From assembly GCA_963712805.1 (NCBI GenBank), contig CAVQJV010000036.1, positions 111,219 to 175,218 of the forward strand: 64,000 nt of DNA. The letters run 5' to 3'. Position numbers and translations under genes: made by a program. Source of the stretch: an uncultured Acidobacteriota bacterium. GTDB taxonomy: Bacteria; Acidobacteriota; Thermoanaerobaculia; Thermoanaerobaculales; Sulfomarinibacteraceae. Positions 8,604 to 61,700 of this stretch are shown here, piece by piece. The notes under the pieces are model-generated. The model did no database searches, was not told the origin of the DNA, and worked only from the letters and a program-made list of their open reading frames with translations. The number at the start of each line of letters is the position of its first letter. Positions within the stretch are counted from its first letter, which is position 1.

Positions 8604-8621
8604 TTCGCTTTCGCGAATTAC
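8600..8621. terminator. Hairpin spanning the gap between the convergent stop codons of the mqn-like gene and rng
   Basis: gtaattcgc-tttc-gcgaattac. 9-bp perfect stem. Loop is TTTC on the plus strand and GAAA on the minus strand. Confidence 0.4.
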
Positions 8622-10102
8622 TATCCGATGATCTCGAATTGTTCCTGGTGCTGCAGCGGGTTCTCCCGCAGGATCACCTGGACGCTGTGGACTTCCTCGA
8701 GCTCTCGCAGTAATTCGCGGAACGGCCCCTGGAGAAAATGCGAGACCTCGGGATGGACCACCAATGAGAGCTGGTCGCTGAGGCCGGCGGTCACAGCCTC
8801 GAGGAGGTTGCGTCGGATCTCGAGACAGATGGTGGCGAGGGCCTTGATTCGCCCGGAGCCGTGGCAGTAGGGGCATTCTCGGCTCAAGGTTCGATCGAGA
8901 CTCGGTCGGGTCCGTTTCCGGGTGAGCTGGATGAGGCCGAATTCCGACATGGGCAGGAGCTGGATCCGTGCCGAGTCGCCGTCGAGTTCGGTCTCGAGGG
9001 CCTGATAGAGCTCGAGACGATGAGCCGGGTCCTCCATGTCGATGAAATCGATGACAACGATGCCGCCGAGGTCTCGAAGTCGAAGCTGTCTGGCGACTTC
9101 CCGCACCGCTTCGAGGTTGAGGGTGAAAACGGTTTCTTCGAGGGATTTCGTGCCGACATACTTGCCGGTATTGATGTCGATCGCCACGAGGGCCTCGGTT
9201 TGATTGACGACCAGATAGCCGCCGGATTTGAGCCACACCTTCGGCCTCAGCGCTTTCTCGAGTTCCCGGTCGATACCGAAGGCGCTCATGAGATCGGTCG
9301 ACTTTCGGAAGAGTTTGAGCCGGGGAACGAGGCTCGGATCCGACTGTTCGAGGAATTCGAGAACTTCCTCGAACGCCTCTTCGTCGTCGACCCATGCCTC
9401 CTGCACCGCTGAGGTCAGGGTGTCCCGGACCGCGCGCAGGACCGGGCTCAGCTCATGGTGGACGAGATAGGGCGCGTTGGTTCTCTCCGTAGCGGTCTGG
9501 ATCTGTTTCCAGAGGTTGACGAGATAGCGTCGATCCGCCTCCAACTCGACGCGACCCTGTCCCTCCCCCGCGGTGCGGACGATCCATCCGCCGCCGCCGA
9601 ACCCGTCGGTCACCGCCTTGAGCCGCTCGCGCTCGTCGTCGTCGGTGATCCTTCGCGAGACGCCGAGTTGTTCCACGGTGGGCATGTAGACCAAAAAGCG
9701 TCCGGGCAGGGTGATATGAGTGGTCAGCCGGGCACCCTTGGTGCCGATGGGGTCCTTCACGACCTGGACGAGGATCTCCTGCCCTTGTCGGAGGAGATCA
9801 CCGATGTCGGTTTCCGCGAACTCGCTGGGTCCGGGCTCGTCATCGACCCTGAAGATGTCCGTGAATTCATCCATGATGCCACCGGCCTCACGGACGTAGA
9901 GAAAGCCGTCTCGGGGCAGCCCAAGATCGATAAACGCCGCCTGCATGCCCGGAAGGACGCGGGTGACCCGGCCCTTGTAGAGATTGCCGACCACCGATGA
10001 AGTCCGGTGTCGTTCCGCTCGGTAGCTCACCAGGCGCGACTTCTCGCGCAGGGCCACTCGGGTTTCGAATGGGTTGACCGAGAGAAAGAGGATGGAGTTC
10101 AT
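8621..10102 (-). CDS. rng: Ribonuclease G/E family (Rng/CafA)
   Basis: MNSILFLSVNPFETRVAL, S1 domain GNLYKGRVTRVLPGMQAAFIDLG, and the catalytic region VVIDFIDM. The ATG at 10102 overlaps the rodA stop (TGATG). The 811-aa ORF in the track is an upstream shadow extension. Confidence 0.9.
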   Translation of the reverse strand: MNSILFLSVNPFETRVALREKSRLVSYRAERHRTSSVVGNLYKGRVTRVLPGMQAAFIDLGLPRDGFLYVREAGGIMDEFTDIFRVDDEPGPSEFAETDIGDLLRQGQEILVQVVKDPIGTKGARLTTHITLPGRFLVYMPTVEQLGVSRRITDDDERERLKAVTDGFGGGGWIVRTAGEGQGRVELEADRRYLVNLWKQIQTATERTNAPYLVHHELSPVLRAVRDTLTSAVQEAWVDDEEAFEEVLEFLEQSDPSLVPRLKLFRKSTDLMSAFGIDRELEKALRPKVWLKSGGYLVVNQTEALVAIDINTGKYVGTKSLEETVFTLNLEAVREVARQLRLRDLGGIVVIDFIDMEDPAHRLELYQALETELDGDSARIQLLPMSEFGLIQLTRKRTRPSLDRTLSRECPYCHGSGRIKALATICLEIRRNLLEAVTAGLSDQLSLVVHPEVSHFLQGPFRELLRELEEVHSVQVILRENPLQHQEQFEIIG

Positions 10103-15427: not shown

Positions 15428-15431
<4 letters not shown>

Positions 15432-16855
15432 TAAACCTCCACGAAGACCCGCTCATTTCGGCTGGTCTCGTTGCCTGCCGGATCGGTGGCCAGGACTTCG
15501 ATCATGTTCCACCCCTCGCGAGGGATCTCGATCATCTTTCGAAAATGACCGTCGGCGTCGGTCACGACCCGTTCGCCGTTGACGGTCACCGCGGCGCCGG
15601 ACTCGGTTCGGCCCTGGACGATAAACATGGCGCCGAGTTGCTGGGTCGGCATGAGAGTGAGTTGGGGCGCGATGCGGTCGGCGAGAATGGCGCGTTCGAG
15701 AGACGAGTAGATCCTCAAACGACGGACCTGGGACCACTCGCTCTCGACGTCGCTCTCACCCACCAGCGACGCTCGCCAGAAATACGTTCCGGGGGCGACA
15801 ATCTTCAAGCGGGCGCTGTCGGAGCGGATATCCCGGCTTTCGACCTCCATGGCTTCGTCGACAAACCGTCGCGAGCGGCTTACCTGGAGGTGGACTGCCT
15901 GGCCCTCGGCCCGGCCGCGCCACTCGAGGGCGACCACCTCATCCTTCTTCATGTCGATGCTGGCGTTGTTCTGGGGTGCGAGCAGAAGTGGGGGGTTCGG
16001 GATCGCTCTGGTCGATGACAGAACGCCGGCGTTGCTGGACTCCACCTGTTGGCGACTGGCGAGGACGACCTCGGCGCCATCGGCGCCACGAACCCGCGCG
16101 CCGCCGTCAAATGTGGCGATCCGGGTCGCGCCGTCGGGGCCGTCATCCACATCGACCTCGACCCGACTGTCGCTGGCGATTTCGGTCTCGGTGGTGTCGG
16201 TGGTGACCTTTGACGTCGAACCTGAGGTCATGACGTGGATTCGACCGATCCGCATCTTGACCGTCCCACTCGAGTTCTCGGATTCGGTGCGGTGTTGGAT
16301 TTCGAGCAACGAGTTCTGGGAGATCCGGTAGAGGCTCCCGTCGGTGAAGAGAATCTCCGCCGAGCCGTCCCGCCCGCTGCGGATGAAGTCGCCGTTGAAA
16401 ACCGGAGTTCGTGGTTGCGCGTTATCCCACTCCGACTGACCCGCCCGTTGGAATTGAACACGCCCTTCGAGGCTGAAAAACTCACCGACTCCGGCGAGGT
16501 GGCGGGTGCCCGATCCGGCGAGGGCGAGAAAACGAAGCCGGGCGCTGTCGGCCTCGGACTCCGCCATCGACCAACGATCCTCGAGGTAGTTTTCACGGGC
16601 AAGCTCGAGTTGAGCCGAAGCTTGACCCAATTCCCGCCGGAGATTCTGCGGCAGAACCAGGGCTTCGGCCTTGGATTCGGCCAATTCGGCGGCTTCGATC
16701 GCCTTTCGAGCGAGCGCTTCGGGAGGAAGATTGAGGCGTTGGTATGCAAGGAAGACCAGACCGGCGGCAACAACTCCGGTAATCACGATGGCGAGGATCC
16801 GCCGAATGTTCGTGAGTTTGATGACATACCAGTCAATCTGGATCGAGCTTCGCAC
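15428..16855 (-). CDS. Membrane-anchored FecR-domain protein with Ig-like repeats, translationally coupled to mreB
   Basis: TM segment [19 protein letters not shown] and a FecR-like stretch ([32 protein letters not shown]). Its stop overlaps the mreB ATG (ATGA). Start is uncertain: I prefer the GTG at 16855 (GGAGGA 9 nt upstream) over the track start at 16918. Confidence 0.5.
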
Positions 16856-16983
16856 GCAGTTAATCCTCCATCTCGAACCGTAACATGCTCGTTCATAAGC
16901 AGCAAGGAGCCGCACCACCCTTGCGCCCTCATCGAAGCTCGGGTAGACTTCGCTGTCCTGATCGGGTCCTTGGGAGGACGTTC

Positions 16984-28166: not shown

Positions 28167-29111
28167 TCAGAGGTACTTGATCGTCTCGGCTGCGGTGGTT
28201 GCATCCGGGCCGTCGGGAGCGACCACCAGGTATTTCTCGAACTGGGCCTTGGCCCCTTCGAGGTCACCGGTGCGCAGCAGCAGCATGCCGTACTCGAAGA
28301 GACATTTCGCGAACTCCGGATCGACGGCGAGGCACTGCTCGAGGTAGGGACGTGCGGCCTCGTCATCCATCTTGTTGAGAAAACCGGCAGCCTGGTTGAA
28401 GAGGGTTGCCGGGTCATCCGGATTGAGCCCCTGATACTGTTCGAGATACGCGGCTTGAGCCTCGCTGTCGCCGACCATGCCGGCCGCGTTGGATGCCACT
28501 GCGAGGCATTTTTGCGACTCGTCGTCCTCCTCGAGACAGCGCCGCGCGGTCGCCAGAGCGAGCTCGGCGTCACCAGAGTTGAAATCGATGCCAGCCATGA
28601 TCTCGAGCGCCTCGATCAGATCGGGCATCGCCACGAGGGCGTCTTCGAGTCGGGCGCGGCCCTCGGCGGTCTTGCCCGCCTCGAGCAGCTCCTGCGCCTC
28701 GCCGAACTCCTTGTATCCCGGTTGCTCCATCACTTCCTGCTGCCGTGCCTTCGAGATCTCCTCCGGTGTCGACAATTCGAAGGTGAACTCGTTGTCGGTG
28801 GTACCGACAGCGACCTTGATCTCCTCCTTGTAGTCGAGGAAACCCGGAGCGGTCACGAAGAAGAGATAGCTGTTCGTGGCATCGAGGATGAGGACCTTGA
28901 ACCGGCCGTCATTGTCGGTCTCGAGGACTTTGTTGTACTTGGGGAGGGCTTCGCAGGTGATCGTGATCGTCGCCCCGGCGACGGGCTCGCCATCGGTTCC
29001 GACAACGGAGCCCCCGATGCGGGCCTGGGGCCCCGCGATGGCGGACCCGATGCCCATGACCATGGTGAGAACAGCCACGAGGGCGAGGGGTACGGTGATG
29101 TGATGGCGCAT
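28167..29111 (-). CDS. Secreted protein: carboxypeptidase-regulatory-like beta-sandwich plus TPR repeats
   Basis: Signal peptide (MRHHITVPLALVAVLTMVMGIGSAIA), CarboxypepD_reg-like GSVVGTDGEPVAGATITI..TDNDGRFKV, then TPR-like helical repeats. Confidence 0.7.
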   Translation of the reverse strand: MRHHITVPLALVAVLTMVMGIGSAIAGPQARIGGSVVGTDGEPVAGATITITCEALPKYNKVLETDNDGRFKVLILDATNSYLFFVTAPGFLDYKEEIKVAVGTTDNEFTFELSTPEEISKARQQEVMEQPGYKEFGEAQELLEAGKTAEGRARLEDALVAMPDLIEALEIMAGIDFNSGDAELALATARRCLEEDDESQKCLAVASNAAGMVGDSEAQAAYLEQYQGLNPDDPATLFNQAAGFLNKMDDEAARPYLEQCLAVDPEFAKCLFEYGMLLLRTGDLEGAKAQFEKYLVVAPDGPDATTAAETIKYL

Positions 29112-29165
29112 TTGAGACCTCCAAGCCGCCGGTCGGACTCAGGATACTCGCATTCCCGGCAGGGC

Positions 29166-30071
29166 TCAACGTGGCCCCAACCCGAGCATGGCGCGAGTCA
29201 CGTGGTGAGCGACGGTGGGGTTTTCCCGCAGGCGGCGCATGGAGTAGGGATACCAGTCGCGACCGAAAGGAACATAGACCCGCAGCCGGTGTCCCCTGTC
29301 GAGGATCATCCGGCGAAGCTCGGGATCGACCCCGAGGAGCATCTGGAACTCGTACTGCGACGGCTCGAGTCCGAGGCGGTCCACGGCGGTCATCCCCGCC
29401 CAGACCAGGTGGGCGTCGTGGGTGGCAATTCCGACATAGGCGCCGCCGCCGATGAGCTTTTCCATCGTCGAGATGAAATTGGCGCGGACGGTCTCGTACT
29501 GCTTCCATGCAATGGACCGCGGCTCGCGGTAGATCCCCTTGCACAGTCGAATATTCGGTTTGAGCGGCAGGAGGTCATTGATGTCTTCGACGGTCCGGTG
29601 AAGATAGGCCTGGAGCACGACACCGACATGGCCGACCTCGGAATGGAGCCGACGGTAGATCTCGAGGGTCGCATCGGTGCAGGTGTGATCCTCCATATCG
29701 ATGCGGACGAAGTTGTCGAGTCTGGCCGCGCTCTCGACGATGGTTTTGATGTTCGCGTAACACATGGTCGTATCGATCTTGAGACCGAGCATGGTCGGTT
29801 TGATGGAGACGTTGGCCTCGACCTTCTCGCGATCGATGGTCTCCAGGAGTTCGAGGTACTGTGCGACGGCCGCCTCGGCCCTGCCCGGTTCGTGGACCTC
29901 CTCTCCGAGGACGTCCACCGTCGCCATGGCCCCCTCGGTGTTGAGTTCCCGGATGGCGTTCATGGCATCGGAAATCTCTTCACCCGCGACATAGCGCTGC
30001 GAGACCTTCCTGACGATGGGTTTGGGCACAAAGGGCATTCCGTGTCGGATCAACTGGTCGAAAAGCGTCAT
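29166..30071 (-). CDS. Proline dehydrogenase (monofunctional PutA-like)
   Basis: VSIKPTMLG, VRIDMEDH, LQAYL, CKGIY, IATHD and YVPFG match the proline dehydrogenase family. The ATG at 30071 overlaps the comF stop (TGATG). Confidence 0.85.
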   Translation of the reverse strand: MTLFDQLIRHGMPFVPKPIVRKVSQRYVAGEEISDAMNAIRELNTEGAMATVDVLGEEVHEPGRAEAAVAQYLELLETIDREKVEANVSIKPTMLGLKIDTTMCYANIKTIVESAARLDNFVRIDMEDHTCTDATLEIYRRLHSEVGHVGVVLQAYLHRTVEDINDLLPLKPNIRLCKGIYREPRSIAWKQYETVRANFISTMEKLIGGGAYVGIATHDAHLVWAGMTAVDRLGLEPSQYEFQMLLGVDPELRRMILDRGHRLRVYVPFGRDWYPYSMRRLRENPTVAHHVTRAMLGLGPR

Positions 30072-30808
30072 CACATTCTCCTGGAATCGGTTGCATGGGC
30101 GATGGTTGCGCAGAATACGGCTTCGGCCCCGGCCGAGAGCAGACTGTCGGCGGCGCGGTGCAGGGTTGTTCCGGTGGTGCAGACGTCGTCGATGAGTAGT
30201 ACGCGGTGGCCCCGCAGCCTCCGGTTTGATGAGAAGCTGCCCCGAGGCAACTGCTTTCGCTGAGCGCGGGTGCGTCCCGCCTGACGGCGAAGACCATGGC
30301 GTCGCAGAACGCGGGTGACGGGTCGATCGACAGCCCGTCCCACCTCGTCGCTGATGAGACGGGCCGCGCTCGATCCTCGGCGAAAACGACGGATGTCGTG
30401 GGACGGGATCGAGGTGACCATGGTGATCTCGTCGAACCAAGTCGCGACGGCGATCCGGGCCGCCAGACGACGGCCCAGCGGCCGCGCGATCTCATCGTGG
30501 CCTCGGTGTTTGAGGGCAAGGACCGCGAGTCGAAGAACCCCGTCGTACTCGCCCCACAACACGGTGGCGGACTGCGGTGGAGGCGAGGCGACGCATTCGA
30601 GGCAGGGTTGACTGTCGCTGTCAGCGGGGACGCCACAGCGCGGACAGCACGGTCCGGAGATGGGATGAAGGCGGCTGCGGCACGAGCCGCACAGGCCGCG
30701 GTCCTCTCCGGCGAGCACATCCTCACATGCCACGCACAGAGCCGGCAGCAGAATCCCTTTAAGGGCAGCCCTCACAGCGACTCGCACGGGCCCAATCCTA
30801 GCCCGCAT
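30071..30808 (-). CDS. comF: ComF family protein / amidophosphoribosyltransferase-like
   Basis: N-terminal Cys pairs (CVACED..CGSC, CPRCG..CLEC) and PRTase motif VLLIDDVCTTGTT. Confidence 0.8.
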   Translation of the reverse strand: MRARIGPVRVAVRAALKGILLPALCVACEDVLAGEDRGLCGSCRSRLHPISGPCCPRCGVPADSDSQPCLECVASPPPQSATVLWGEYDGVLRLAVLALKHRGHDEIARPLGRRLAARIAVATWFDEITMVTSIPSHDIRRFRRGSSAARLISDEVGRAVDRPVTRVLRRHGLRRQAGRTRAQRKQLPRGSFSSNRRLRGHRVLLIDDVCTTGTTLHRAADSLLSAGAEAVFCATIAHATDSRRM

Positions 30809-38425: not shown

Positions 38426-39358
38426 TCACGGCTGGTCGGGACTCACCGTTTGAGGCAGCCACGGAGCCATGACCGGCTCCATCCAAGGACGAATATTGTT
38501 GCTGCTTCCGGATCGTCCCCACTGAACGGCGGCGGCGCGGTCATCGGGCAGTGGCCGGCCGGCGATCCAGAAAATGGCCCAGGCGAGTACCAAAGTCACC
38601 GCGAGAAGACCGAAGCCACGGGCCGCCACCGGCGTCACCGGGTGGGTCAAGGGCGCCGGATAGCCGATCCATGCCGCCATCAGAACGACGAGGAGCGGCA
38701 CCCCTGCCGTGATGCTCGCCTCGAGCTGGAACTCGGCGCGAAGGGTGGTCGTGGCGACCGCCCATGCCAGGGGAATCGGCGCAAGGTGGACGGCGACGAG
38801 CACCAAACGACGGCTGCGGCGGAGATGATAACGGGTGATCCGCGCGATGGCGATGAGTCGAAGCACGATGGGCACGATGACCGCCGCGACCAGGGCTGGA
38901 CACAACCATCGAAGTTCGAGGGGGAGGTCGCGAAACAGGAGCCAGCGAGCGAGGTGGTTGGTTTCGGGGTCGAGAGCCGGTTGCCATGAAGCGCTGATCA
39001 CCGCGGCCATCCAGGCCAACTGAACGACAAAGAGTTGCGACGAGAGGCTCTTGAGCCGGAGCGACAACGGGATGGCCAATGCTGCGACCGCCAGTGGTGC
39101 TATCCACGAACCGAGCCAGTAACCGGAAGCCGAGGGCAGAGAGGCGAAGTTGAGGACCGGTTGATTGACCAGCGCCCAGGCCTGACGATCCCACGGCACG
39201 CTGAGGCCGATCCACCCGGCCTTCGCCAGCAGCGCCCCGAGGCCCTGGCCGCCGGCGGCGACAAAGAGCGAAACGGGCAGGGCGATGAGTCCGGCCAACC
39301 AGCTTGCCAGCAGACCCATGGGTGCCAGGGGATCGGGCCGTCGATTCACCGGCGGCAT
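38426..39358 (-). CDS. Hypothetical polytopic membrane protein
   Basis: Multiple hydrophobic segments and no recognisable motifs. I prefer the ATG at 39358 (MPPVNRR) over 39388. Confidence 0.5.
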   Translation of the reverse strand: MPPVNRRPDPLAPMGLLASWLAGLIALPVSLFVAAGGQGLGALLAKAGWIGLSVPWDRQAWALVNQPVLNFASLPSASGYWLGSWIAPLAVAALAIPLSLRLKSLSSQLFVVQLAWMAAVISASWQPALDPETNHLARWLLFRDLPLELRWLCPALVAAVIVPIVLRLIAIARITRYHLRRSRRLVLVAVHLAPIPLAWAVATTTLRAEFQLEASITAGVPLLVVLMAAWIGYPAPLTHPVTPVAARGFGLLAVTLVLAWAIFWIAGRPLPDDRAAAVQWGRSGSSNNIRPWMEPVMAPWLPQTVSPDQP

Positions 39359-39374
39359 GCTACCATGCCGCCGG
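39349..39374. repeat. Perfect 11-bp inverted repeat (4-bp spacer) covering two divergent start codons
   Basis: ccggcggcatg-ctac-catgccgccgg. Each arm encodes Met-Pro-Pro of one of the two divergent genes. Confidence 0.8.
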
Positions 39375-41398
39375 ATATGAGAGTCCAAACCACTCTGCTC
39401 AAAGGTGTTTTCAGCGCTTCATTTGCTCTGATCGCAGCCGCAGTTTTGATTCCTGAGGCCCGGGCCCAGGCCCTTTTGGTCGAGCGGCTTCCAGGCGGAA
39501 CCCAGCTCGTTCTGGTCAACCAGCCCTTGGCCGATGCGACCACCCTTGTGTGGCCCGAGGTCTCCGATGACCAGGAAGCGGTGATCGTTCGACTCACTGT
39601 TGGTCGGCTCACCATTGCAGCGGATGTCGATGCCGCCTTCGGGGCCACCCAGACCGAGGGCCTGCCGACACCGGTGCCCGCGGTGATCGTCGCGGTTGGC
39701 GGGGCATCGGCGGATGAGTTGTCGTCACTTCTCGAACGGGTCCTCGGTGATCGTCCCGCGGCGTCGGTGGTCTTGCCCTCGCCGCCGGTCCTGGTGGAGG
39801 GCGGCCTTGATCGCAGGCTCGGCGCTCCGGGGAGTGAGGCACTGTTGCGGTTCGAGCTCTTGCTGCCACCGCCCGGCGATGCGCGGCGAAGCTCGGTAGA
39901 GGTGCTCTGGGATCTCGTGCCCCAACTCCTGTCCGACACCATCCCGATCCTCCAGAGTCGGGTCGAGGACGATCGCGGTGTGCTCGAAGGTCGTGTCGAT
40001 GCGGATATTGCCGAGATCACCGTCAGTGACCTGCGGCTCCAGCTGGCGCGGATTGCCTCGGATCCCAACCTCCAGGCCGATGATGTGGCCGAGGCGCGTC
40101 GCCGCCTTCAGGTGCGCCGCTACGCGGCGCTCGAGGAACACCCGGACGCTGCGGTGAAGGTCTTGGAGCGTTGGCTCTCGGGTGGTGAGGAGGCGGTTCG
40201 AGAACTCGTTTTCGGAACCCAGGCCGTCACGATCCAGAGTGTGCGTGAAGCCGCCGCCGAGTGGTTGCCCACCCACCCGGGACACGCGCAGTTGATCCTG
40301 CCCCCGCGGGTTTTCAACCCGCGGTTTGCGGTTGAGCCGCAGATCCACCAACTCGGGAACGACCTGACTGCGGCCATCCTCGAACGCGCCAGCGCGCCGG
40401 TGTCGGTGGTGGTTCTGCGACCGGTGGTGGTTCCGGATTTCGATGGCGAGGTCACAGCGACGGTTCTCGCTCGGATGGCGCGGGAGCTGCGATCGGCCGA
40501 GAGCCGTCCGGGTTTCGTACGGGTGCGAACAGATCCGCCCCTGATCGAGGTCGCCGGACCGGCGGATGGACTCGGCGAGCTCTTGGAGCAGCTCACAGGC
40601 GCCTATGTCGCGGTGGTCTCGGATCGCGCACCCGTGACCACCTATGGCGATGATGCTCGGCGGCGAGCCCTCGATCTCATGGCCGGTCTGCTCGGTGTGA
40701 CGGAGGCCGAGGATCCCTCGCCGGCGGCCCTCCTCCGCGCGGGCAACCTCGCCCTCGGCGTGGTCGCAACCGATGCCGAGGCGGCGGCCGAGGCCCTCGG
40801 CAAATTCTGGGCGGTCGAATCGAGCGACGGTGGTGCGACGGATGTCCAGAGCGTGCCTGCGGTCCCGCGCACCCGGGTCGCCGCCGCCGGGGACGAGTCG
40901 GTCCTGGTGGTGGCCCTCGAAACGGAGTTCGGCGGCAACGAGGCCGTCTCCATGGTTCTGCGCGAGCTTCTCGAAACCCGCGCCGGCGCCCTGTGGCCCG
41001 ACAGCCGGGTTGAGGTGCTTCGTCCGTATGTACCGGGACGTTCACTGCTGCTCATCGAGGTTGCGGCGGACGAAACCGTGGACGGCGTCGAGCGGGCGGT
41101 TGTCCGAAAGTGGTCGTCCCTCATCTCCGGCGCCGGCGAAGCGGAGCTCGCCCCGGTCAAGCGTCGGGTGGCGGCGGCCGCGAGCGCCGAAATGAGCGGC
41201 GTCGCCGGCCACGCCCGACTCTGTGCCGCGACAGCGGCGGGAGCCTCGAGGTGGCGCCAACCGGCGGAGTTCGAGCTCGAGATCCTGACCGTGGATGTGG
41301 AGATGATCAACCTGATCCTGAAGAGGTTCTCCGATTTCTCTACCCTCGAGACAACCGGCGCGGGCGTCCTGCTCATCACCGAGCTCCAGGGCCGTTGA
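39365..41398 (+). CDS. Secreted insulinase (M16)-like protein without a zinc motif
   Basis: Signal-like N-terminus (LLKGVFSASFALIAAAVLIPEARAQ). Two-lobed Ala/Leu-rich sequence reminiscent of M16 inactive domains (LVERLPGGTQLVLV). No HxxEH is present. The family call is weak. Confidence 0.4.
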   Translation: MPPDMRVQTTLLKGVFSASFALIAAAVLIPEARAQALLVERLPGGTQLVLVNQPLADATTLVWPEVSDDQEAVIVRLTVGRLTIAADVDAAFGATQTEGLPTPVPAVIVAVGGASADELSSLLERVLGDRPAASVVLPSPPVLVEGGLDRRLGAPGSEALLRFELLLPPPGDARRSSVEVLWDLVPQLLSDTIPILQSRVEDDRGVLEGRVDADIAEITVSDLRLQLARIASDPNLQADDVAEARRRLQVRRYAALEEHPDAAVKVLERWLSGGEEAVRELVFGTQAVTIQSVREAAAEWLPTHPGHAQLILPPRVFNPRFAVEPQIHQLGNDLTAAILERASAPVSVVVLRPVVVPDFDGEVTATVLARMARELRSAESRPGFVRVRTDPPLIEVAGPADGLGELLEQLTGAYVAVVSDRAPVTTYGDDARRRALDLMAGLLGVTEAEDPSPAALLRAGNLALGVVATDAEAAAEALGKFWAVESSDGGATDVQSVPAVPRTRVAAAGDESVLVVALETEFGGNEAVSMVLRELLETRAGALWPDSRVEVLRPYVPGRSLLLIEVAADETVDGVERAVVRKWSSLISGAGEAELAPVKRRVAAAASAEMSGVAGHARLCAATAAGASRWRQPAEFELEILTVDVEMINLILKRFSDFSTLETTGAGVLLITELQGR

Positions 41399-52613: not shown

Positions 52614-53858
52614 CTATTTGCAGGTCTCGGAGTACTGTCTCTGGAGCACGGTGAGCTGCTCGCGCATCTGCCGTGCGCTCTCCATGTCGCCGAGTTTCTC
52701 GAACTCTTCCGCCTGCATCGCGAGGGCGTCGATCTTGGTCTTGAACTCCCGGCATTCTGCGGCGAACTTCTCATTCTCACCCTGGGCGGCGATCTTCTCA
52801 TCCATGGCGGCGGCCTGACGGCTGTTGCCGGCCTCGGAATAGGCCTGCTTGGCCTTCGCGTAGTCACGGTCCTTTTCGTACACATAGCCCATCTGGTTGT
52901 AGATCTTCTTGCGAAGATCGGCGTTGCCGCTGGCCTGGGTCAGAGCCTGCTGCAGTGAGGACAGTGCGCTCTTGTAGTTGCCGAGCGAGGTGTAGCACTG
53001 ACCGATATAGTAGTGCACCAGGGCGTTGCTCGACTTCTGGGCCTTGGCCTTTTCGAACCAGGCCAGTGCCTTCGAGTACTGCTGCGCGCCAAGCCAACTC
53101 TCACCGGCGAGCAGATTGTGTTCGAAGTTCGGTTCGGCTTTGGCAAGATTCTCCGCGATAGTTGCGGCGTCGTTGTAGTACTTGGACTTTTCCGTCGCCG
53201 ACCCGGTCCGTCGGGCGACGGAGGTGGCGGCGCGAACCGCATAGCGACCGCAGGTCTCGTTTTTGGGATCGAGCTCGTAGCCCCGCTTGAATGCCGCAAA
53301 AGCAGCCTTGTCGTTTCCGGCTTCATCCTGGGCGACACCGAGAGCCTGATAGAGGTCGGGATTGGATGAGTCCGCCTTGACCTGGGCGTCAAGGACGCTG
53401 ACCGCCTCGCTGCCGCGGTTGGTCTCGGTGGCAGCCTTGGCAAAGAGCAGGGCGTAATTCGACCGATAGCTCGCGGGAAGCTTGCTGAAGTTCACGGCTT
53501 TCAAGGTCGAATAGGCGTCGTTGTACTGCTTGGCCTGATTGAGGGTCTGTCCGAGGGTGATGGGGTACATCGGGTTCGGCGTTTCGTTGGCCGAGTCGAG
53601 CTCGACCGCCTTGCGAAAACTGCCCAACGCAGCCGAGACGTTGCCTTGGGCACGGCGGCTCAGCCCGAGCATGTAGTGGGTTGCCGGTTCATTGGGCTGA
53701 CTCTCGATGACCGCCTCGAACTCTTGCGCGGCCTTGGCGTAGTCCTTTGCCTTGAAAGCGGCGATCCCAGCGGCGTAATCCGCCGAGACCGGGGAACCCG
53801 TCCCGATCGCGATGATGATTGCAACGCCGATCGTCCAGCGGCCTATTGTCGATTTCAT
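52614..53858 (-). CDS. Secreted TPR-repeat protein, last gene of the Ton-like operon
   Basis: GGGAGG RBS. Signal-like N-terminus MKSTIGRWTIGVAIIIAIGTGSPVSA. Many TPR units (AxxYxxAxxxFxxAl pattern) and a C-terminal coiled coil ending in ..SETCK. Confidence 0.75.
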   Translation of the reverse strand: MKSTIGRWTIGVAIIIAIGTGSPVSADYAAGIAAFKAKDYAKAAQEFEAVIESQPNEPATHYMLGLSRRAQGNVSAALGSFRKAVELDSANETPNPMYPITLGQTLNQAKQYNDAYSTLKAVNFSKLPASYRSNYALLFAKAATETNRGSEAVSVLDAQVKADSSNPDLYQALGVAQDEAGNDKAAFAAFKRGYELDPKNETCGRYAVRAATSVARRTGSATEKSKYYNDAATIAENLAKAEPNFEHNLLAGESWLGAQQYSKALAWFEKAKAQKSSNALVHYYIGQCYTSLGNYKSALSSLQQALTQASGNADLRKKIYNQMGYVYEKDRDYAKAKQAYSEAGNSRQAAAMDEKIAAQGENEKFAAECREFKTKIDALAMQAEEFEKLGDMESARQMREQLTVLQRQYSETCK

Positions 53859-53883
53859 GAATTGGTGCCTCCCTGAGTTAACG

Positions 53884-54723
53884 TCAACGCGCCGGGACGC
53901 TTCCGGCGTCCCCGAGTAGTGGTCGGACTTGCTCGTCGAACATGGCGGCAACATCGGCGCCCTTGAGCAGGGAGATCGCGTCGCTGTGCTGTTCGACCAT
54001 CGTTCTGATCGCGTCAAAACCGGCGCCCTGCTCGATCAGGGTTCGGGCGCCGGCATACTGCTTGTCGATTGTGTTTTTTCCGCTGTCACCGACCACATTG
54101 AGGGCGACCGACATGATCCGGTTGGCGAGACCGATCAATGTGACCGGACTCGGACCCTGATGCGTCGATCCCGATGTCGAATCCTCGGTTTCGGACCGCA
54201 GGGCAACCAGCCCCGAGGTGATCATTCCAAAAAGGAGTTTGGAGACGTCGAAGGCCGACCAATGCAGCTGTTCGCCGATCTCCTCGATGGTGTGCTCGTC
54301 ATCGATGCGAGTCACGAGAATCCACTCATGTGGACTCAAGGTAACCTGATCGCTCTGGTCCCTTGATTTGAAGAAAGGAATGAGATCGAGGGAGGGTATC
54401 TTTCGCGACAACACGCGCCACTCGTCGAGCCGACGGGCGGCCTCCATCATCAAGTTGGCATTGGAAAGGTGGATCGTCACCGCCTCGGTCTCTTCACCGG
54501 GGTTGAAGGTGAACTCGCCCTCGGACCAGATCGCCATCTCGTAGACGGCGTTGTCGCCACGCAGGGTGTTGACCGCCGCATCGACGATCTGGCCGTCACG
54601 AAGATAGATCTTACCGACCTCGTCGTGACGGGTGACCGAAAACACACCGGTCTTTCCCGAGACGCTGACCATTTGAATCACGTCTGGTAGAGAGAGCTCG
54701 GAAAGAGACCCTTGCAATGCCAT
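53884..54723 (-). CDS. DUF4388 (PATAN-type) domain protein inside the Ton-like operon
   Basis: MALQGSLSELSLPDVIQMVSVSGKTGVFSV..GKIYLRDGQIVDA is a typical DUF4388 N-terminus. Lies 19 nt after tonB and 25 nt before the TPR gene. Confidence 0.7.
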   Translation of the reverse strand: MALQGSLSELSLPDVIQMVSVSGKTGVFSVTRHDEVGKIYLRDGQIVDAAVNTLRGDNAVYEMAIWSEGEFTFNPGEETEAVTIHLSNANLMMEAARRLDEWRVLSRKIPSLDLIPFFKSRDQSDQVTLSPHEWILVTRIDDEHTIEEIGEQLHWSAFDVSKLLFGMITSGLVALRSETEDSTSGSTHQGPSPVTLIGLANRIMSVALNVVGDSGKNTIDKQYAGARTLIEQGAGFDAIRTMVEQHSDAISLLKGADVAAMFDEQVRPLLGDAGSVPAR

Positions 54724-54742: not shown

Positions 54743-55468
54743 CTACTGCAGGTTGAACCGTACAGTCAGAATGTACAGCACCTCCACCGGTTTCCCATTG
54801 AGGGTCGACGGCTTGAACTTCCACTTCCGAACGGCGTCGTCCGCCGCCTCGGTGAGACCGAGCGGCAATGGTCGAAGAACCTTCACATCCTGGACGTTGC
54901 CATCTTTGCCGATGGTGCACTCGAGGACCACGACACCCTGGATTCGGGCGCGGCGCGCAGCTTCGGGGTAGACCGGGTTCGGTCCGCTGAGCTTCTCGGG
55001 TTCGGTGATGTTGCCGCCGACGACGAAGCGTACCGGCCCCTCAGGCTCTGGTGGCGGTGGTGCGTCCGGGATTCCGAGAACCAAGTTGTCATCGGGGATG
55101 AAATCGATGTCCTCGTCGGGCTCGTCATCACGGATGGGCTCGGGCTCGTCGGGCGTCGGGTCCGGGATCGGAACCTTCTTGCTCTTGGGTTTCGGGATCT
55201 GCTGGAGCTCCTGCTTGGGAGGCTGCTTGAACTTGACTTGCTTGACCACGTAGATCTTGGTCTTTTTCTCGGTCGCGTCCTTGAGGCCGCCGGCGAAGGT
55301 CGGCCAGTGAAACGCGAAGATAAAGACGTGCAGGATGACGGCGACGGCGATCGCGACGCGGGTGAGCTTTTTGTCCTGCTGCTCTTCCTGCGCGATGATC
55401 TCGATGGTGGTCAGCTTCATCTTGGGGTCAGGCGCCTTGGATGCTGGTGTTTTGGGCGTCTCGGTCAT
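54743..55468 (-). CDS. tonB: TonB family protein
   Basis: N-terminal TM, Pro/Lys/Glu-rich spacer (PKPKSKKVPIPDPTPDEPEP) and TonB-C domain (PVYPEAARRARIQGVVVLECTI..DGNV). GAGGAGG RBS. Confidence 0.85.
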   Translation of the reverse strand: MTETPKTPASKAPDPKMKLTTIEIIAQEEQQDKKLTRVAIAVAVILHVFIFAFHWPTFAGGLKDATEKKTKIYVVKQVKFKQPPKQELQQIPKPKSKKVPIPDPTPDEPEPIRDDEPDEDIDFIPDDNLVLGIPDAPPPPEPEGPVRFVVGGNITEPEKLSGPNPVYPEAARRARIQGVVVLECTIGKDGNVQDVKVLRPLPLGLTEAADDAVRKWKFKPSTLNGKPVEVLYILTVRFNLQ

Positions 55469-55478
55469 GTCGTCCTCC

Positions 55479-55991
55479 TCACCCCATTCCCAGGAGGTTC
55501 CAGATGTTCTCGATTTCCCGCTGGGTCGGAATCGAGATGGTCTTGATTTCGGTCAGATCATTGCCGTGGACATCCTTGTACAGGGCTCTGCGTTCTTCGC
55601 TGCCTGCAATCGGTTCGGTCCACTCTTCGTTGGCTCGGCGGAGCAGATCGAAGATGCTGATCATGTCGCCGTAGGAAGCGTCCGGATCGGTCCGGAGAAT
55701 CACCGGCTTGTCGGGGTTCTGCAGCAGCTTCTCGAGCACGTACGGCAGCAACTGCTCCCTCGGCAGGGCCTTCTTGTCGACTTCGATGGACCCACCCGGT
55801 GTGACGTGAACTTCGATGGCGTCTTCCTGCTTGATCTCGGGGGTGTCGGTCTCCTCGGGGAGGGCGAAATCAAGGCCGCGGGTTGCCGAGAAGGCGGAGG
55901 TGATCATGAAGTAGATGATCAGCAGGAACGAGATATCGGCCATGGATCCGGTGAAGATCTCGGAGGCGATTTCTTTCTTTTTGATATTCAT
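55479..55991 (-). CDS. exbD: Biopolymer transport protein ExbD/TolR
   Basis: MADISFLLIIYFMITS TM containing the conserved Asp, then an ExbD periplasmic domain. Confidence 0.85.
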   Translation of the reverse strand: MNIKKKEIASEIFTGSMADISFLLIIYFMITSAFSATRGLDFALPEETDTPEIKQEDAIEVHVTPGGSIEVDKKALPREQLLPYVLEKLLQNPDKPVILRTDPDASYGDMISIFDLLRRANEEWTEPIAGSEERRALYKDVHGNDLTEIKTISIPTQREIENIWNLLGMG

Positions 55992-56005
55992 CGTCGTCCC
56001 CCGGC

Positions 56006-56449
56006 CTACAGTTCCGCTGCCGTCAGCTGCTCGGAAAGCAGGAAGATGTACTTCACCTTCGATTGCTTGAGCGCATCGAGCACTTCGTCCACCACCGCGT
56101 AAGGGGCGTCCTTATCGGCCTTGAGGATGAACTCCGCGTTGGGGTTCTTCGCCACCTCCGTTGATGCGAAGGTGATCACCTCTTCGATGGTGGCCACCGG
56201 GAGCGCCATTTCCTCGCCGGTGGAAACCCGGATCGTCGATCCCATGTTGGGTGGGGAGATGGAGATCACCGCCGCCTTTTCGGGGATCTTCTTGCGGATC
56301 CAGGTCTCGGGCAGGTTCATCTGCGTTTTGTCCACCTCGACCTTGTAGGTCAGGACAAAGAAAACGATCAAGAGGAAGACGATATCCGCCATGGAAGCGG
56401 TAAAGATCGCCGCCCCGGTTCCTCGGTCTCTGCCGCGAATCAGTGCCAT
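56006..56449 (-). CDS. exbD: Biopolymer transport protein ExbD/TolR (second copy)
   Basis: SMADIVFLLIVFFVLT TM with Asp. ExbD-like C-terminus (ILKADKDAPYAVVDEVLDAL). Confidence 0.85.
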   Translation of the reverse strand: MALIRGRDRGTGAAIFTASMADIVFLLIVFFVLTYKVEVDKTQMNLPETWIRKKIPEKAAVISISPPNMGSTIRVSTGEEMALPVATIEEVITFASTEVAKNPNAEFILKADKDAPYAVVDEVLDALKQSKVKYIFLLSEQLTAAEL

Positions 56450-56477
56450 CGCGGTCTCCCTTCCTCAGGTCGTGTTC

Positions 56478-57107
56478 TCACTCAGCGCTCCCGTCCATCT
56501 CGGTGAAGGTTTCGAGGAGCATGTTGGTTGCGGTTTCGATGTCGCGAACAAAGCGTGTGATCTTCGTCGTGTACCAGTTGTAGGCGAGCTGGGCCGGAAT
56601 CGCGATGATGAGACCGGCGGCGGTGGTGATGAGCGCCTCGGAGATCCCGACGGCAACCGCTGCCGGATTGGTCAGACCCTGCTCCGCGAGAGTGGCAAAC
56701 GATTTGATCATGCCGGCGACGGTTCCGAGGAAGCCGAGCATGGGAGCAACGTTGGCCGTGGTCGCAAGAACGCCCATTCGTTTTTCCAAACGATCGAGCT
56801 CATAAAGAGCGGCGTTCTCGATGGTCTTCTCGATGTCTTCACGACTGTGGCCGTAACGCAGCAGACCGGCCTTCATCACCGAAGCAACGGGTCCGCGATT
56901 ACTCTCACAGGCTTTGATGGCTTCTTTGACATTGCGGTTGACCAACAGCGCCTTACGGATCTTGGTCAGAAACTCATTGACGTTGATCCTCGCCTTGGTC
57001 AGCACGATGAATCGCTCGATGATGACGGTCAGTGCCAACAGCGAAAAGAAGAGCAACGGCCACATGAAGATCCCACCCTGGCGGAATAGATCTGCTACTT
57101 GTCCCAC
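56478..57107 (-). CDS. exbB: MotA/TolQ/ExbB proton channel protein
   Basis: GGIFMWPLLFFSLLALTVIIER, LATTANVAPMLGFLGTVAGMI, ALITTAAGLIIAIPA. Confidence 0.9.
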   Translation of the reverse strand: MGQVADLFRQGGIFMWPLLFFSLLALTVIIERFIVLTKARINVNEFLTKIRKALLVNRNVKEAIKACESNRGPVASVMKAGLLRYGHSREDIEKTIENAALYELDRLEKRMGVLATTANVAPMLGFLGTVAGMIKSFATLAEQGLTNPAAVAVGISEALITTAAGLIIAIPAQLAYNWYTTKITRFVRDIETATNMLLETFTEMDGSAE

Positions 57108-57325
57108 GTTCTTGCCTCCTCCTAGTTAGAGTTCGACGAGCGGGAAAAGTTCCAATCCCGACCGACGAGCTATTGTGAACGAGCATTTAAACCAACACAA
57201 GAGGCAAAGCCACTCGCGGCCACCACCATTTCGCGTTCTTCTCCAAATGATGAAGGCAGTGCATCCTAGCATGGGGTTTTCGCGACCGTCAACGACGAGC
57301 GCACCGAGTTTTACAGCGCTTACAT

Positions 57326-58680: not shown

Positions 58681-58708
58681 TTGACTTTGGGTACCGGTCG
58701 CAGATAAT
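58681..58708 (+). promoter_or_regulatory. Candidate sigma70-type promoter for the Ser/Thr kinase gene
   Basis: TTGACT (58681-58686), 16-nt spacer, GATAAT (58703-58708). Lies 44 nt upstream of the ATG at 58752. Confidence 0.35.
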
Positions 58709-58751
58709 GAGAACGGGCCCTTCGAACCGGGGAGCATTCAGGGACGATTCA

Positions 58752-61455
58752 ATGAGCGCAAACATTCTACTCATCGAGTACGAGCAGAGTACCGTCGATG
58801 GTATCAGGCAATGCCACTGCCGGAGGCGGTCACCGCCTCGAGGTGGCCGGTAGTCTGGACGCCGCGGTTGAGGCTTGTGCCCATTTCGAACCCAAGATCG
58901 TCATCATCACCGCACAGCTGCCGCAGATTCCCGTCGGGGATGCCATCACCCAACTTCGGGGCCGGGCCGGTCTGCGGGTCACCCCGTTCTTGATTCTGAT
59001 GCCGGGATACCAGGGTGATGACTCCAAGGCCGATGCCGAAGAGGTCGGCGCTCAGGACATTGTCTCGCTCCCATTCGCGGCCGAAGAGATCCGAAACAAG
59101 ATCGAGGCGTTGATTCGGGCGTCGGCTGCGATTCTCACGACCCAGGCGGTGCCGCAGGAGACGCTGGACGCCTTACGCCGGGGTCAAGCCGAGGACGACG
59201 GCCAGTCGTTCAGTTCCGACGACCTCTTCGCCGACATTCTCTCCGATGTCGAGAGAGATGGACCGGTCGACAAAAAGACGACCGCCGCGACCTCACAGCG
59301 AGTCTTCGACTCCAAGGTCGACAGTGCTTTGGCCGACATGCTCGGCGACGCCGGTGAAGTCCGCGAGCATCGGCGGTCGAAGCCGAGTGCCGATGTCGAC
59401 GCCATGCTTTCCAAGACCCTGGCCGGGCTCGAGCTGTCGCCGTCGACGACGACCAAGAAGAAGACTCCGAACGAGCCGATCAAGGAGACCGCCGCTGCCG
59501 GCGAACCGGGCCCGCCTCCCGGGCCCGCCCCCGAGGCCGAGCCGCCGAAGGCCGAACCCATCGCCGAATCCGCGGCGGAGAAGAAGACGCCGGTCGACCG
59601 GACCTCGACGGTTTCCCCGGGAACGACCTTTGGACAGTACGTCCTCGAGGAGCGCATCGCGACCGGGGGGATGGCCCAGGTCTACAAGGCCCGCATGCTC
59701 GGTCTCGAGGGGTTCCAGAAGACCGTCGCCATCAAGAGAATCCTGCCCCACCTCACAAGCAACGAAGAGTTCGTCAGCATGTTCGTCGATGAGGCCAAAC
59801 TGGCGGCCCAACTCAACCATCCGAACATCATTCATATCTACGATCTCGGCAAGATCGACAGTTCCTATTTCATTGCCATGGAGTACATCGAGGGGCGCGA
59901 TCTTCGGTCAATCCTCGACCAGTGCCGTCAGCGCGATGTCCGGGTGCCGATCCCCATCGCTTTGTATATCGCCAATCTGCTTGCGAGCGGACTCGACTAC
60001 GCGCACAAGAAGCGCGATTTCGACAATCGCGACCTCGGATTGGTCCACCGGGACGTCTCGCCGCAGAATGTGCTCATCTCCTCCGACGGAGAGATCAAGC
60101 TCTGCGACTTCGGGATCGCCAAGGCGGCCTCCAAGGCGTCGCACACCCGCGCCGGCGCGCTCAAGGGCAAGCTGCAGTACATGTCTCCCGAGCAGGCCTG
60201 GGGAAAGGACATCGATCACCGATCGGATGTCTTCTCCCTCGGAGTCGTGCTCTACGAGATGTTGACGGCGCACAAGGTGTTTACCGGCGATTCCGAGCTG
60301 TCGATCCTCGAGCAGGTCCGCAACCCGGTTGTCGCGGTTCCCTCGAGCGTGGTGCCGGCGATTCCCGCCGAGGTCGACCGCATCGTCTCAAAGGCGCTCT
60401 CACCGGAGCGAACCGATCGCTATCAATCCGCGCTGGATCTTCAGCGCGAGTTCGAGGTCCTTCTCAAGGGCCAGGGATGGGAGCCGGATACCGCGGCCCT
60501 GGTCGGCTTCATTGGCGAACTCGAATCGGGTGCGGAAATCACGGATTATCCCGCCGCCCTCCCGGAGGCTGCAACTTCGGTCACACCGCCCGTCGAGCCG
60601 CCGCCGGGCCCGCCGGTCAAACCGCCGGCGAAAGAACCGGAGCCGGCTCGGAAGAAGGCCGTCAAACCGGTGGTTCTGGCTGAAACCGTGGCGGAGATCG
60701 AGGCCGCCGACGCGCCGCCGACGAGGGGCGCCGGCAAGTGGCTGTGGATCGCGATCGCGACGGTCGTGCTTGCGCTCATCGCGGGATGGTGGTTTTTCAT
60801 GGGTCCGGGCTCCGGAGGGGGTGACTCCACCGCGGTGCCGACGCCTGTTCCGGCCGCCGTGACCGTGGAACAGACCCCCACCGTCACCGATGGGCTGATG
60901 GACGAGGCGGAACTCCTGGAACGCGCGCGTGAGGTGGCTTCGGCCGAGATGGCCAAGCAGGAGCAGGAACTCAGGGATCGGCTCGAGAAGGAGTTCCCGA
61001 CACCGACGCCGCTGCCGCCGACCGAGACCCCGACCGAGACCCCGACCGAGACCCCGACCCCGAGTCCGACGGCGACCAAGAGACCACCGACACCGACTCG
61101 GGTGCCGCCGACGGCGACGCCGATCCCCAACACGCCGACTCCGGTTGTTCTCGAGGGGGACATCGTCGACGCGGGACCCGGCGTCACCGCCCCGGTCCTG
61201 CTCAACCGGGTGAATCCGGTCTATCCCCCCATCGCTCAGCGCGCGGGGATCAGCGGCGAGGTGACGGCACAGCTTCTCGTCGGAATCGACGGTCGGGTCG
61301 AAGAAGTCCGAGATATCGTCGCGTCCAAGACGGGTGTCGGGTTCGAACACGCGACTGAAGATGCGGTGCGCCAGTGGCGATATCGTCCCGCGACCAAGAA
61401 CGGCGTCAAGGTCCGGGTGTGGGTTCGAATCACGGTAAATCTCACGTTGAACTGA
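58752..61455 (+). CDS. Pseudo-receiver / Ser-Thr protein kinase / TM / Pro-Thr-rich linker / TonB C-terminal domain fusion (N-terminal frame break near 58805-58830)
   Basis: The intact ORF is 58798..61455. A short ORF from the ATG at 58752 encodes MSANILLIEYEQSTVDGIRQ (receiver beta1) in the -1 frame. Kinase motifs are ATGGMAQVY, VAIKRI, HRDVSPQN and DFGIAKA. TM is WLWIAIATVVLALIAGWWFFMG, followed by PTETPTETPTETPT. The TonB-C domain reads NPVYPPIAQRAGISGEVTAQLLVGIDGRV. Confidence 0.8.
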
Positions 61456-61469
61456 CTGTGGAGGACGAG

Positions 61470-61700
61470 ATGGGTGCAACTCTGACCGATGACCAACGGA
61501 GCTTCTACGAGGATGCGCGCTCGCGCACCAAAGCCGAGATTGATGAGTTCGAAAGCCAGATTCAGGTTGAACTCGACAAAGTCAAGGACCGGATCCAGGG
61601 GCTCAAGCAAGGGGCTGATGCGGCCCGCCAGATGTATGCTGCGGCCTGCCTCATGCTCGGCGAGCCGAACGAGTTCGAAGAGGACGATAGCGAGGATTAG
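61470..61700 (+). CDS. Small acidic coiled-coil protein (76 aa), hypothetical
   Basis: GGAGGA about 6 nt upstream of the ATG. Helical, charged sequence ending EFEEDDSED. A hairpin follows at 61729-61749. Confidence 0.4.
   Translation: MGATLTDDQRSFYEDARSRTKAEIDEFESQIQVELDKVKDRIQGLKQGADAARQMYAAACLMLGEPNEFEEDDSED

Follow-up and report, generated by a model that had tools for sequence, protein, structure and literature searches.

A probable receptor-type Ser/Thr kinase carrying a TonB C-terminal domain and an aspartate-less receiver domain, found widely in the class Thermoanaerobaculia

Most of what is understood about receptor Hanks-type kinases comes from Gram-positive bacteria and mycobacteria, in which cell-wall precursors are read by PASTA domains, and much less is known of how outer-membrane or periplasmic status is coupled to Ser/Thr phosphorylation in bacteria with an outer membrane. 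The PASTA kinases PknB (Mycobacterium tuberculosis), StkP (Streptococcus pneumoniae) and Stk1 (Staphylococcus aureus) share a layout of a cytoplasmic Hanks kinase, a disordered juxtamembrane segment, one transmembrane (TM) helix and an extracytoplasmic envelope-binding module. TonB of Escherichia coli (structures 1u07, 2gsk and 2grx) has an N-in TM helix, a proline-rich spacer and a C-terminal domain, TonB_C, which normally contacts the TonB boxes of outer-membrane transporters. A gene that brings elements of both together was examined in a 64-kb stretch of DNA, referred to here as the window, from an uncultured Acidobacteriota bacterium (GenBank accession number CAVQJV010000036.1; positions 111219 to 175218). 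This gene, at 58752 to 61455 on the + strand, encodes in order a receiver-like domain, a Hanks-type kinase domain, a TM helix, a Pro/Thr-rich spacer and a TonB_C domain. The same five parts had been set out in a preliminary description of the window, and all are real as judged by profile searches, matches to solved structures and an AlphaFold model, but the reading frame that joins them is broken in the window.

The long open reading frame (ORF) on the + strand (coordinates 58798 to 61455) encodes 885 amino acids (aa) from its first in-frame start, the ATG at 58798. Residues are numbered by this ORF, and 15 is added for the numbering of P0001, the closest homologue. The AlphaFold model of P0001, made with a 115-sequence alignment, had a mean predicted local distance difference test (pLDDT) score of 70.4, a good kinase core and disordered linkers. 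The kinase domain (coordinates 59638 to 60426, + strand) matched Pkinase (PF00069) over residues 281 to 543 and profile positions 1 to 253 of 263, with an E value of 1.4e-40 and 139.8 bits against a cutoff of 31.7. The closest solved kinases were StkP and PknB (E 1e-44, ~33–35% identity), and Foldseek run on the full-length model returned kinase-domain matches only, including PknB (E 4e-20).

The VAIK, HRD and DFG motifs named in the preliminary description are present in the window protein, together with a glycine loop (ATGGMAQV), the αC Glu (DEAK), the Asn of HRD..N and SPE, and all of these are invariant across the 115 homologues. However, the catalytic loop (coordinates 60124 to 60147, + strand) reads HRDVSPQN, with a Ser, invariant in the family, that aligns to the Lys of HRDLKPQN in StkP. 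The Lys of HRDxKxxN, typical for Ser/Thr-specific kinases, is thus absent in the window protein and in the family. Relative to StkP, there is also an insertion of ~8 residues (KKRDFDNRDLG) ahead of HRD.

Between the receiver and the kinase lies a cytoplasmic linker (coordinates 59128 to 59622, + strand) that is predicted to be disordered (pLDDT <50), and column conservation picked out three short helical motifs in it, TQAVPQETLDALRR, SSDDLFADILSDVE and DVDAMLSKTLAGLE. Across the family these motifs (TQA.PQE.L.ALRR, SDDLF.DILSDVE and DVDA.LS.TLAGL) are amphipathic and carry invariant or nearly invariant residues in an otherwise variable stretch, and they could be docking or autoregulatory elements.

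The single TM helix, WLWIAIATVVLALIAGWWFF, is encoded at 60733 to 60801 (+ strand). Residues 649 to 667 were the only hydrophobic segment above 1.6 (Kyte-Doolittle peak 2.23), and the helix was found at 661 to 683 in the P0001 model. Across the 115 homologues, the flanks of the helix have a mean count of Lys plus Arg residues of 3.05 (N side) and 1.45 (C side). As a single TM helix follows an ATP-dependent kinase, and the flanking Lys/Arg counts agree, we infer an N-in/C-out orientation with the C-terminus in the periplasm, in keeping with the topology first proposed. A His was found in or near the TM helix in only one of the 115 homologues, whereas the helix of the TonB encoded nearby (AIAVAVILHVFIF) has one. 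The N-terminal signal-anchor helix that marks TonB, whose conserved His (S-x3-H) couples it to ExbB/ExbD, was therefore not found here, and ~645 cytoplasmic residues precede the kinase TM helix.

On the predicted periplasmic side, a conserved helix, GLMDEAELLERAREVASAEMAKQEQELRDRLEKEF (coordinates 60904 to 60993, + strand), corresponds to the helix at 718 to 747 in P0001 (pLDDT 82–89) and has a mean column conservation of 0.73. It is followed by the Pro/Thr-rich spacer (coordinates 60994 to 61152, + strand), which is disordered in the model and conserved throughout the family (mean column conservation 0.80). The spacer includes TETPTETPTETP, encoded by a 12-nt tandem repeat, CCGACCGAGACC, present in 3.5 copies with 100% matches at 61018 to 61059, slightly more than the three copies at 61021 to 61056 noticed earlier. 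From the TM helix to the C-terminal domain the kinase has ~138 residues, compared to ~104 in the neighbouring TonB.

The TonB_C domain (NPVYPPIAQRAGISGEV ... WRYRPATKNG ...) and the stop codon occupy 61213 to 61455 (+ strand). Residues 806 to 881 matched TonB_C (PF03544) with an E value of 2e-16 and 60.6 bits, the cutoff being 24.6. The ORF also matched TIGR01352 (tonB_Cterm; 41.8 bits against a cutoff of 27.1), and the closest structures were those of the E. coli TonB C-terminal domain (1u07, E 8.2e-10). The domain is ordered in the P0001 model at 800 to 900 (pLDDT >90). These results, and the presence of the sequence string originally quoted, bear out the earlier assignment of TonB_C as the last domain. 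The C-terminal domain is 40% identical to that of the TonB encoded 3 kb away, with which it shares an NPVYP motif, and at this identity it was rejected as a recent copy of the adjacent tonB gene. In 53 genomes, the kinase C-terminal domain shared a mean of 58.5% identity with the window copy, compared to 86% for that of the true TonB.

When a representative library was searched with the kinase C-terminal domain, the top ranks were taken by proteins with 3 to 8 tandem TonB_C domains. Ten long matches were scanned, and nine were BlaR1-like M56 proteins with 3 to 5 TonB_C domains, while the other carried TonB_C repeats only. The nine are P0121, P0125, P0199, P0202, P0210, P0212, P0229, P0254 and P0264, and in the tenth, P0162, the 7 TonB_C domains are the only ones recognised. 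No further kinase-TonB_C fusion was found among the ten matches scanned from this ranking, which the tandem TonB_C proteins dominated. Architectures with Pkinase and TonB_C are listed in InterPro.

The N-terminal domain retains the receiver fold. All 22 family N-termini examined matched Response_reg in Pfam (best E 5.9e-12), with P0001 scoring 31.5 bits against the cutoff of 30.2, and a profile built from them matched solved receivers over their full length, including 3lte (E 1.8e-11), PhoP, PhoB, PleD and CheY. Residues 1 to 130 of the P0001 model form five strand-helix units with pLDDT >90. In the window, the part of the domain encoded in the frame of the long ORF (coordinates 58798 to 59127, + strand) carries Response_reg on residues 13 to 103 and corresponds to the (βα)5 fold of the model. 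The window ORF matched Response_reg (PF00072) only from profile position 24 and at 20.2 bits, below the 30.2 cutoff, because β1 is out of frame.

Alignment to the solved receivers placed family residues E9-Y10 at the acidic pair (DD/DDE), T53 at the phospho-Asp at the end of β3, S84 at the Thr/Ser of β4 and R106 at the Lys of β5. The Thr at the phospho-acceptor position (IVIITAQLP), first recognised from the translation, is hence confirmed by its alignment to the Asp of receivers of known structure. Among 115 homologues, conservation of the pocket was high at E9 (113/115), Y10 (110/115) and E11 (113/115), and T53 was found in 107, with Asn in 6 and Ala in 2. The residue that follows, S54, was present in 113 of the 115, and S84 and R106 in 102 and 109, respectively. 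The EYE sequence previously taken as the acidic pocket does therefore align to the DD pair and is conserved in the family, but in the window it lies in a different frame from the long ORF. The window receiver keeps T53 but has A54, P84 and L106 in place of the family residues.

With no phospho-acceptor Asp, no D-D acidic pair and no β5 Lys, the domain lacks what is expected of a canonical phosphorylatable receiver. As E-Y replaces D-D and Arg (Leu in the window) replaces the β5 Lys, it groups with the aspartate-less receivers (ALR), which include RitR and FrzS (Maule et al. 2015) and resemble it in having a receiver fold with the phospho-Asp replaced. In ALR domains, Ser, Thr or Tyr occupies the phospho-Asp position in 12%, with no modification described there, and whether the former phospho-Asp sites undergo Ser/Thr phosphorylation was asked and had not been answered as of 2015 (PMC4395418). 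That a Thr-Ser pair stands at the former Asp site of a domain joined to a Ser/Thr kinase suggests the possibility of a phospho-Thr switch.

The frame of the gene is interrupted within the receiver. The ATG at 58752, taken in the preliminary description as the start of a protein running through EYE in one frame, is in a different frame from the long ORF and translates as MSANILLIEYEQSTVDGIRQCHCRRRSPPRGGR up to a stop at 58851–58853; the EYE pocket is off the frame of the long ORF for this reason, and the earlier reading had crossed the frameshift unnoticed. The closest homologues, ~900 aa in length, have the N-terminus MSANILLIEYEQSSVDG, in fuller form MSANILLIEYEQSSVDGVRNAIAGG.HHLKVAG..., and the window matches them over the first ~19 residues in one frame and over the remainder in the next. 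The 5' end of the gene (coordinates 58752 to 58808, + strand; MSANILLIEYEQSTVDGIR) thus supplies the start codon, β1 of the receiver and the start of α1, as its translation and the homologue N-termini agree. Deletion of a single base anywhere in 58806 to 58815 gives an ORF of 900 aa, the length of P0001.

The extra base (AGGCAATGCC; coordinates 58807 to 58812, + strand) has no counterpart in any of the related sequences examined. All eight contigs that cover the site, from six independent public DNA runs, are one base shorter there, and two of them (X4 and X5) show no other difference from the window over the stretches that they cover, 58700 to 58920 and 58773 to 58901, respectively. A metatranscriptome contig reads AGG|AATGCC at the site, also without the base. 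In ~13 kb compared with the relatives L005, L009, L006 and L001, this is the sole uncompensated coding indel (+1), the other indels that are not multiples of three being compensating pairs or intergenic, and the receiver is encoded in one frame in 80 of 80 related genome loci. The extra base is therefore probably an assembly error, and the intact protein would be 900 aa.

The alternative for this copy is a genuine frameshift, making it either a recent pseudogene or the source of an N-truncated protein that starts at ATG 58798 and lacks β1 of the receiver. The base is there in the window sequence as given, and since none of the runs read reproduced the window's version, it could be a private mutation in the source population. 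Nonetheless, this alternative is regarded as improbable in view of the otherwise identical contigs, the agreement of all covering contigs and loci, the solitary nature of the indel, and the intact and conserved remainder of the ORF. A recurrent or programmed frameshift at the receiver, prompted by the late starts of P0002 (871 aa) and P0014 (872 aa), was also considered and rejected. As the sequence upstream of P0002 is in frame, its late start arose in gene calling, where an internal ATG was picked, and that of P0014, 37 nt from the end of a contig, is a contig-end artefact. A second frameshift, at the 5' end of the nearby exbB gene (an indel at 57156 relative to relatives), was likewise rejected, as in the window an in-frame stop codon immediately precedes the GTG start, and in L001 the longer exbB call looks like an over-extension.

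Nearly all of the 120 best database matches (47–82% identity, E ≤1.5e-264) have both Pkinase and TonB_C, and most also have Response_reg. Clustered at 90% identity, proteins with the three-domain architecture formed more than 120 clusters, and when one genome was scanned for each species at least 99 relatives came to light, nearly all in metagenome-assembled genomes. Their genomes are labelled Thermoanaerobaculia, Thermoanaerobaculales, Sulfomarinibacteraceae, Holophagae or Acidobacteriota, with a few odd bin labels. As far as seen, the gene appears to be a conserved orthologue that is common within the class Thermoanaerobaculia and confined to it. Where family members are named in the databases, they are called only 'TonB family protein', a label that hides the kinase. 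The preliminary description had raised the prospect of a common, already described family; the family is indeed common, but literature searches found no paper describing the receiver-kinase-TonB_C architecture.

We tentatively propose, with a confidence that falls a little short of even, that the protein is a single-pass (bitopic) receptor Hanks kinase in which a TonB_C domain that is not energised docks on a partner in the envelope and so changes the state of the kinase. Inside the cell there would be the ALR domain, the disordered linker with its three short helices and the PknB/StkP-like catalytic domain, and in the periplasm the 30-residue helix, a Pro/Thr spacer about as long as that of TonB, and a canonical TonB_C. 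As the TM helix lacks the His and the nearby Ton cassette (exbB-exbD-exbD-tonB) has its own tonB, the TonB_C of the kinase is not expected to be driven by ExbBD. The C-terminal domains of TonB and TolA bind an exposed strand of a partner by β-strand addition, and the kinase TonB_C may grip an outer-membrane or periplasmic partner in the same way, the leading candidate being the TonB box of a TonB-dependent transporter. The oligomeric state of the kinase and autophosphorylation of its activation loop would then change with the occupancy or clustering of the docked domains, so that envelope status would be converted into cytoplasmic Ser/Thr phosphorylation, in parallel to PASTA input into PknB and StkP. 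The ALR domain may serve in cis as a regulatory or dimerisation module, and the product of a small ORF directly downstream may be a partner or substrate of the kinase. Use of TonB_C on membrane signal transducers elsewhere, in the BlaR1-like M56 sensors, lends support to this proposal.

The periplasmic domain might instead be a passive anchor to peptidoglycan or to a structural outer-membrane component, positioning a kinase whose signal is sensed elsewhere, for example by the receiver-like domain and the linker motifs. Peptidoglycan association has been reported for TonB C-terminal domains, the kinase C-terminal domain is less constrained than that of the true TonB, and the most conserved parts of the protein are cytoplasmic (mean column conservation 0.83 for the kinase and 0.76 for the receiver, in addition to the linker motifs). 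However, the domain retains both its canonical NPVYP motif and the region of the C-terminal strand through which TonB binds TonB boxes, and the conserved periplasmic helix and spacer could reach the outer membrane, exceeding what a peptidoglycan anchor needs. We consider a passive anchor unlikely, though it deserves serious consideration. Much less credible is an alternative TonB, energised by ExbBD for a dedicated transporter, with the kinase and receiver regulating or reporting transport. The N-in TM helix, proline-rich spacer and TonB_C are laid out as in TonB, and the gene adjoins exbB-exbD-exbD-tonB in most genomes, but there is no conserved His in the TM helix, the Ton cassette comes with a tonB of its own and is missing beside the kinase gene in at least 11 loci, and the kinase gene lies on the other strand, with ruvC and yebC in between. 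A more ambitious version of the proposed docking mechanism, in which TonB_C reads the TonB boxes of loaded transporters to drive Ser/Thr phosphorylation and the kinase also phosphorylates the Thr of its own receiver to recreate a switch, appears doubtful, and distinctly so.

Several observations weigh against the docking receptor kinase proposed here, or against parts of it. The invariant Ser in place of the catalytic-loop Lys means that full activity cannot be assumed. With its further decayed pocket (A54, P84 and L106), the receiver of the window clade is doubtful as a phospho-switch, and were the extra base real, the window copy would be without receiver strand β1. The faster evolution of the kinase TonB_C is a poor fit with reading the same broad set of TonB boxes as the true TonB, and the difference in identity between the two domains would fit better with a single co-evolving partner or with looser anchoring. 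None of the ten largest ORFs in the window was found to encode a TonB-dependent transporter. Finally, linkage of the kinase gene to the Ton cassette is not obligatory.

The cassette (coordinates 54743 to 57107, - strand), identified by matches to MotA_ExbB, ExbD (twice) and TonB_C, does lie ~1.6 kb away, as was pointed out earlier (the exbB gene ends at 57107), but on the other strand and beyond ruvC and yebC. Upstream of the kinase gene the opposite strand carries yebC, ruvC, exbB, exbD, exbD, tonB, a DUF4388 gene and a TPR gene, while a 76-aa ORF, accD and folC follow it on the same strand. This entire ~20-kb block (TPR, DUF4388, tonB, exbD, exbD, exbB, ruvC, yebC, kinase, small ORF, accD, folC) is syntenic across the class, and the synteny persists in relatives down to ~50% identity. 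The loci in which there is enough upstream sequence and the cassette is missing are L045, L061, L067, L070, L072–L076, L081 and L083; Thermoanaerobaculaceae-type loci are among those without the cassette, and several of the loci named retain yebC, ruvC and DUF4388. As the whole block is syntenic and the cassette is absent from some loci, adjacency to the Ton operon reflects lineage synteny, and conserved synteny was rejected as evidence of a functional link. The suggested functional connection of the kinase to transporters and to the Ton operon is somewhat weakened.

The constant companions of the kinase gene are the divergent yebC-ruvC pair and the small ORF (coordinates 61470 to 61700, + strand), which encodes an acidic helical protein of 76 aa and is the candidate partner or substrate referred to above. 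In the window it begins 14 nt past the kinase stop codon, and in some relatives it overlaps that codon. Alignment showed it to be conserved, at the same position, in every related locus that has downstream sequence, with a near-invariant KAARQMY.AAC..LG.PN motif, and it had no match in Pfam or NCBIfam. A mechanically produced ORF list starts it at the GTG at 61374, overlapping the kinase gene, which is probably an over-extension. Metatranscriptome contigs of related populations include parts of the kinase gene and run across its junction with the small ORF, which suggests that the two are co-transcribed, although such libraries can contain DNA.

On the 3' side of tonB, a protein with a DUF4388/PatA_N domain (coordinates 53884 to 54723, - strand) and a large TPR protein (coordinates 52614 to 54017, - strand) are encoded; both are conserved in most loci, and the DUF4388 gene adjoins ruvC even in loci without exbB-exbD-exbD-tonB. 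Among the ten largest ORFs in the window, the only other hint of trans-envelope signalling was the ORF at 15428 to 16918 (- strand), which matched a FecR domain (E 4.4e-07) and also has a glucodextranase-B-like domain. Others encode Lon, RNase E/G, PBP2, a SurA-like peptidyl-prolyl isomerase and a GAF histidine kinase. Three long ORFs, at 28455 to 30263 (+ strand; 602 aa), 39035 to 41398 (+ strand; 787 aa) and 7545 to 9395 (- strand; 616 aa), had no Pfam match at E 1e-5, and the last, which overlaps other ORFs, is perhaps not a gene. Searches of the whole 64-kb window for tRNA genes and for Rfam families at the gathering threshold found none.

A domain known for gripping outer-membrane transporters is here placed on a receptor kinase, making it a testable candidate for a new input module, and it is encoded by a single gene conserved throughout an entire class of Acidobacteriota that is widespread in sediment and soil. 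The near-invariant Thr-Ser of a receiver that is fused to a Ser/Thr kinase also makes the family a natural test case for the question of ALR phosphorylation. If the kinase does read occupancy, this would be a trans-envelope route distinct from energy transduction by TonB and from signalling via FecA, FecR and a sigma factor.

The described proteins with the closest kinase domains of known structure are the PASTA kinases. The NCBIfam model for these (NF033483, PknB_PASTA_kin) matched residues 279 to 690 at 300 bits against a cutoff of 450, over model positions 7 to 377 only, and no PASTA match was found in the Pfam search of the window ORF. In place of PASTA repeats the window protein has a TonB_C on a long Pro/Thr spacer, and it differs further in its additional N-terminal ALR, in the Ser that replaces the catalytic-loop Lys and in having a diderm host. 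The likeness to TonB extends to membership of the TonB_C family and to the order of helix, spacer and C-terminal domain. However, TonB has a short tail where the window protein has its long cytoplasmic part, and the TM helix of the kinase is without the His, its spacer is PT-rich rather than EP/KP-rich and its C-terminal domain is less constrained.

Compared to ALR proteins of the RitR/FrzS type, the family found here has its ALR fused in cis to a Ser/Thr kinase, with a near-invariant Thr-Ser at the former Asp site, one acid of the pocket replaced by Tyr and the β5 Lys replaced by Arg, and it is without a DNA-binding or other output domain. The BlaR1-like M56 sensors resemble it in using TonB_C as the extracytoplasmic module of a membrane signal transducer, but they are multi-pass metalloproteases with 3 to 5 tandem TonB_C domains, whereas the window protein is a single-pass kinase with one. 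The FecA-FecR-FecI system is similar in idea, an inner-membrane signaller reading the state of an outer-membrane transporter across the periplasm. FecR-type anti-sigma factors bind the N-terminal signalling domain of the transporter and act via an extracytoplasmic function (ECF) sigma factor, whereas the proposed reader of the window protein is TonB_C and its proposed output Ser/Thr phosphorylation. The protein is thus of a known kind, a receptor Hanks kinase, and what is new is its sensor module and its aspartate-less receiver, in a previously undescribed family that is widespread in its class.

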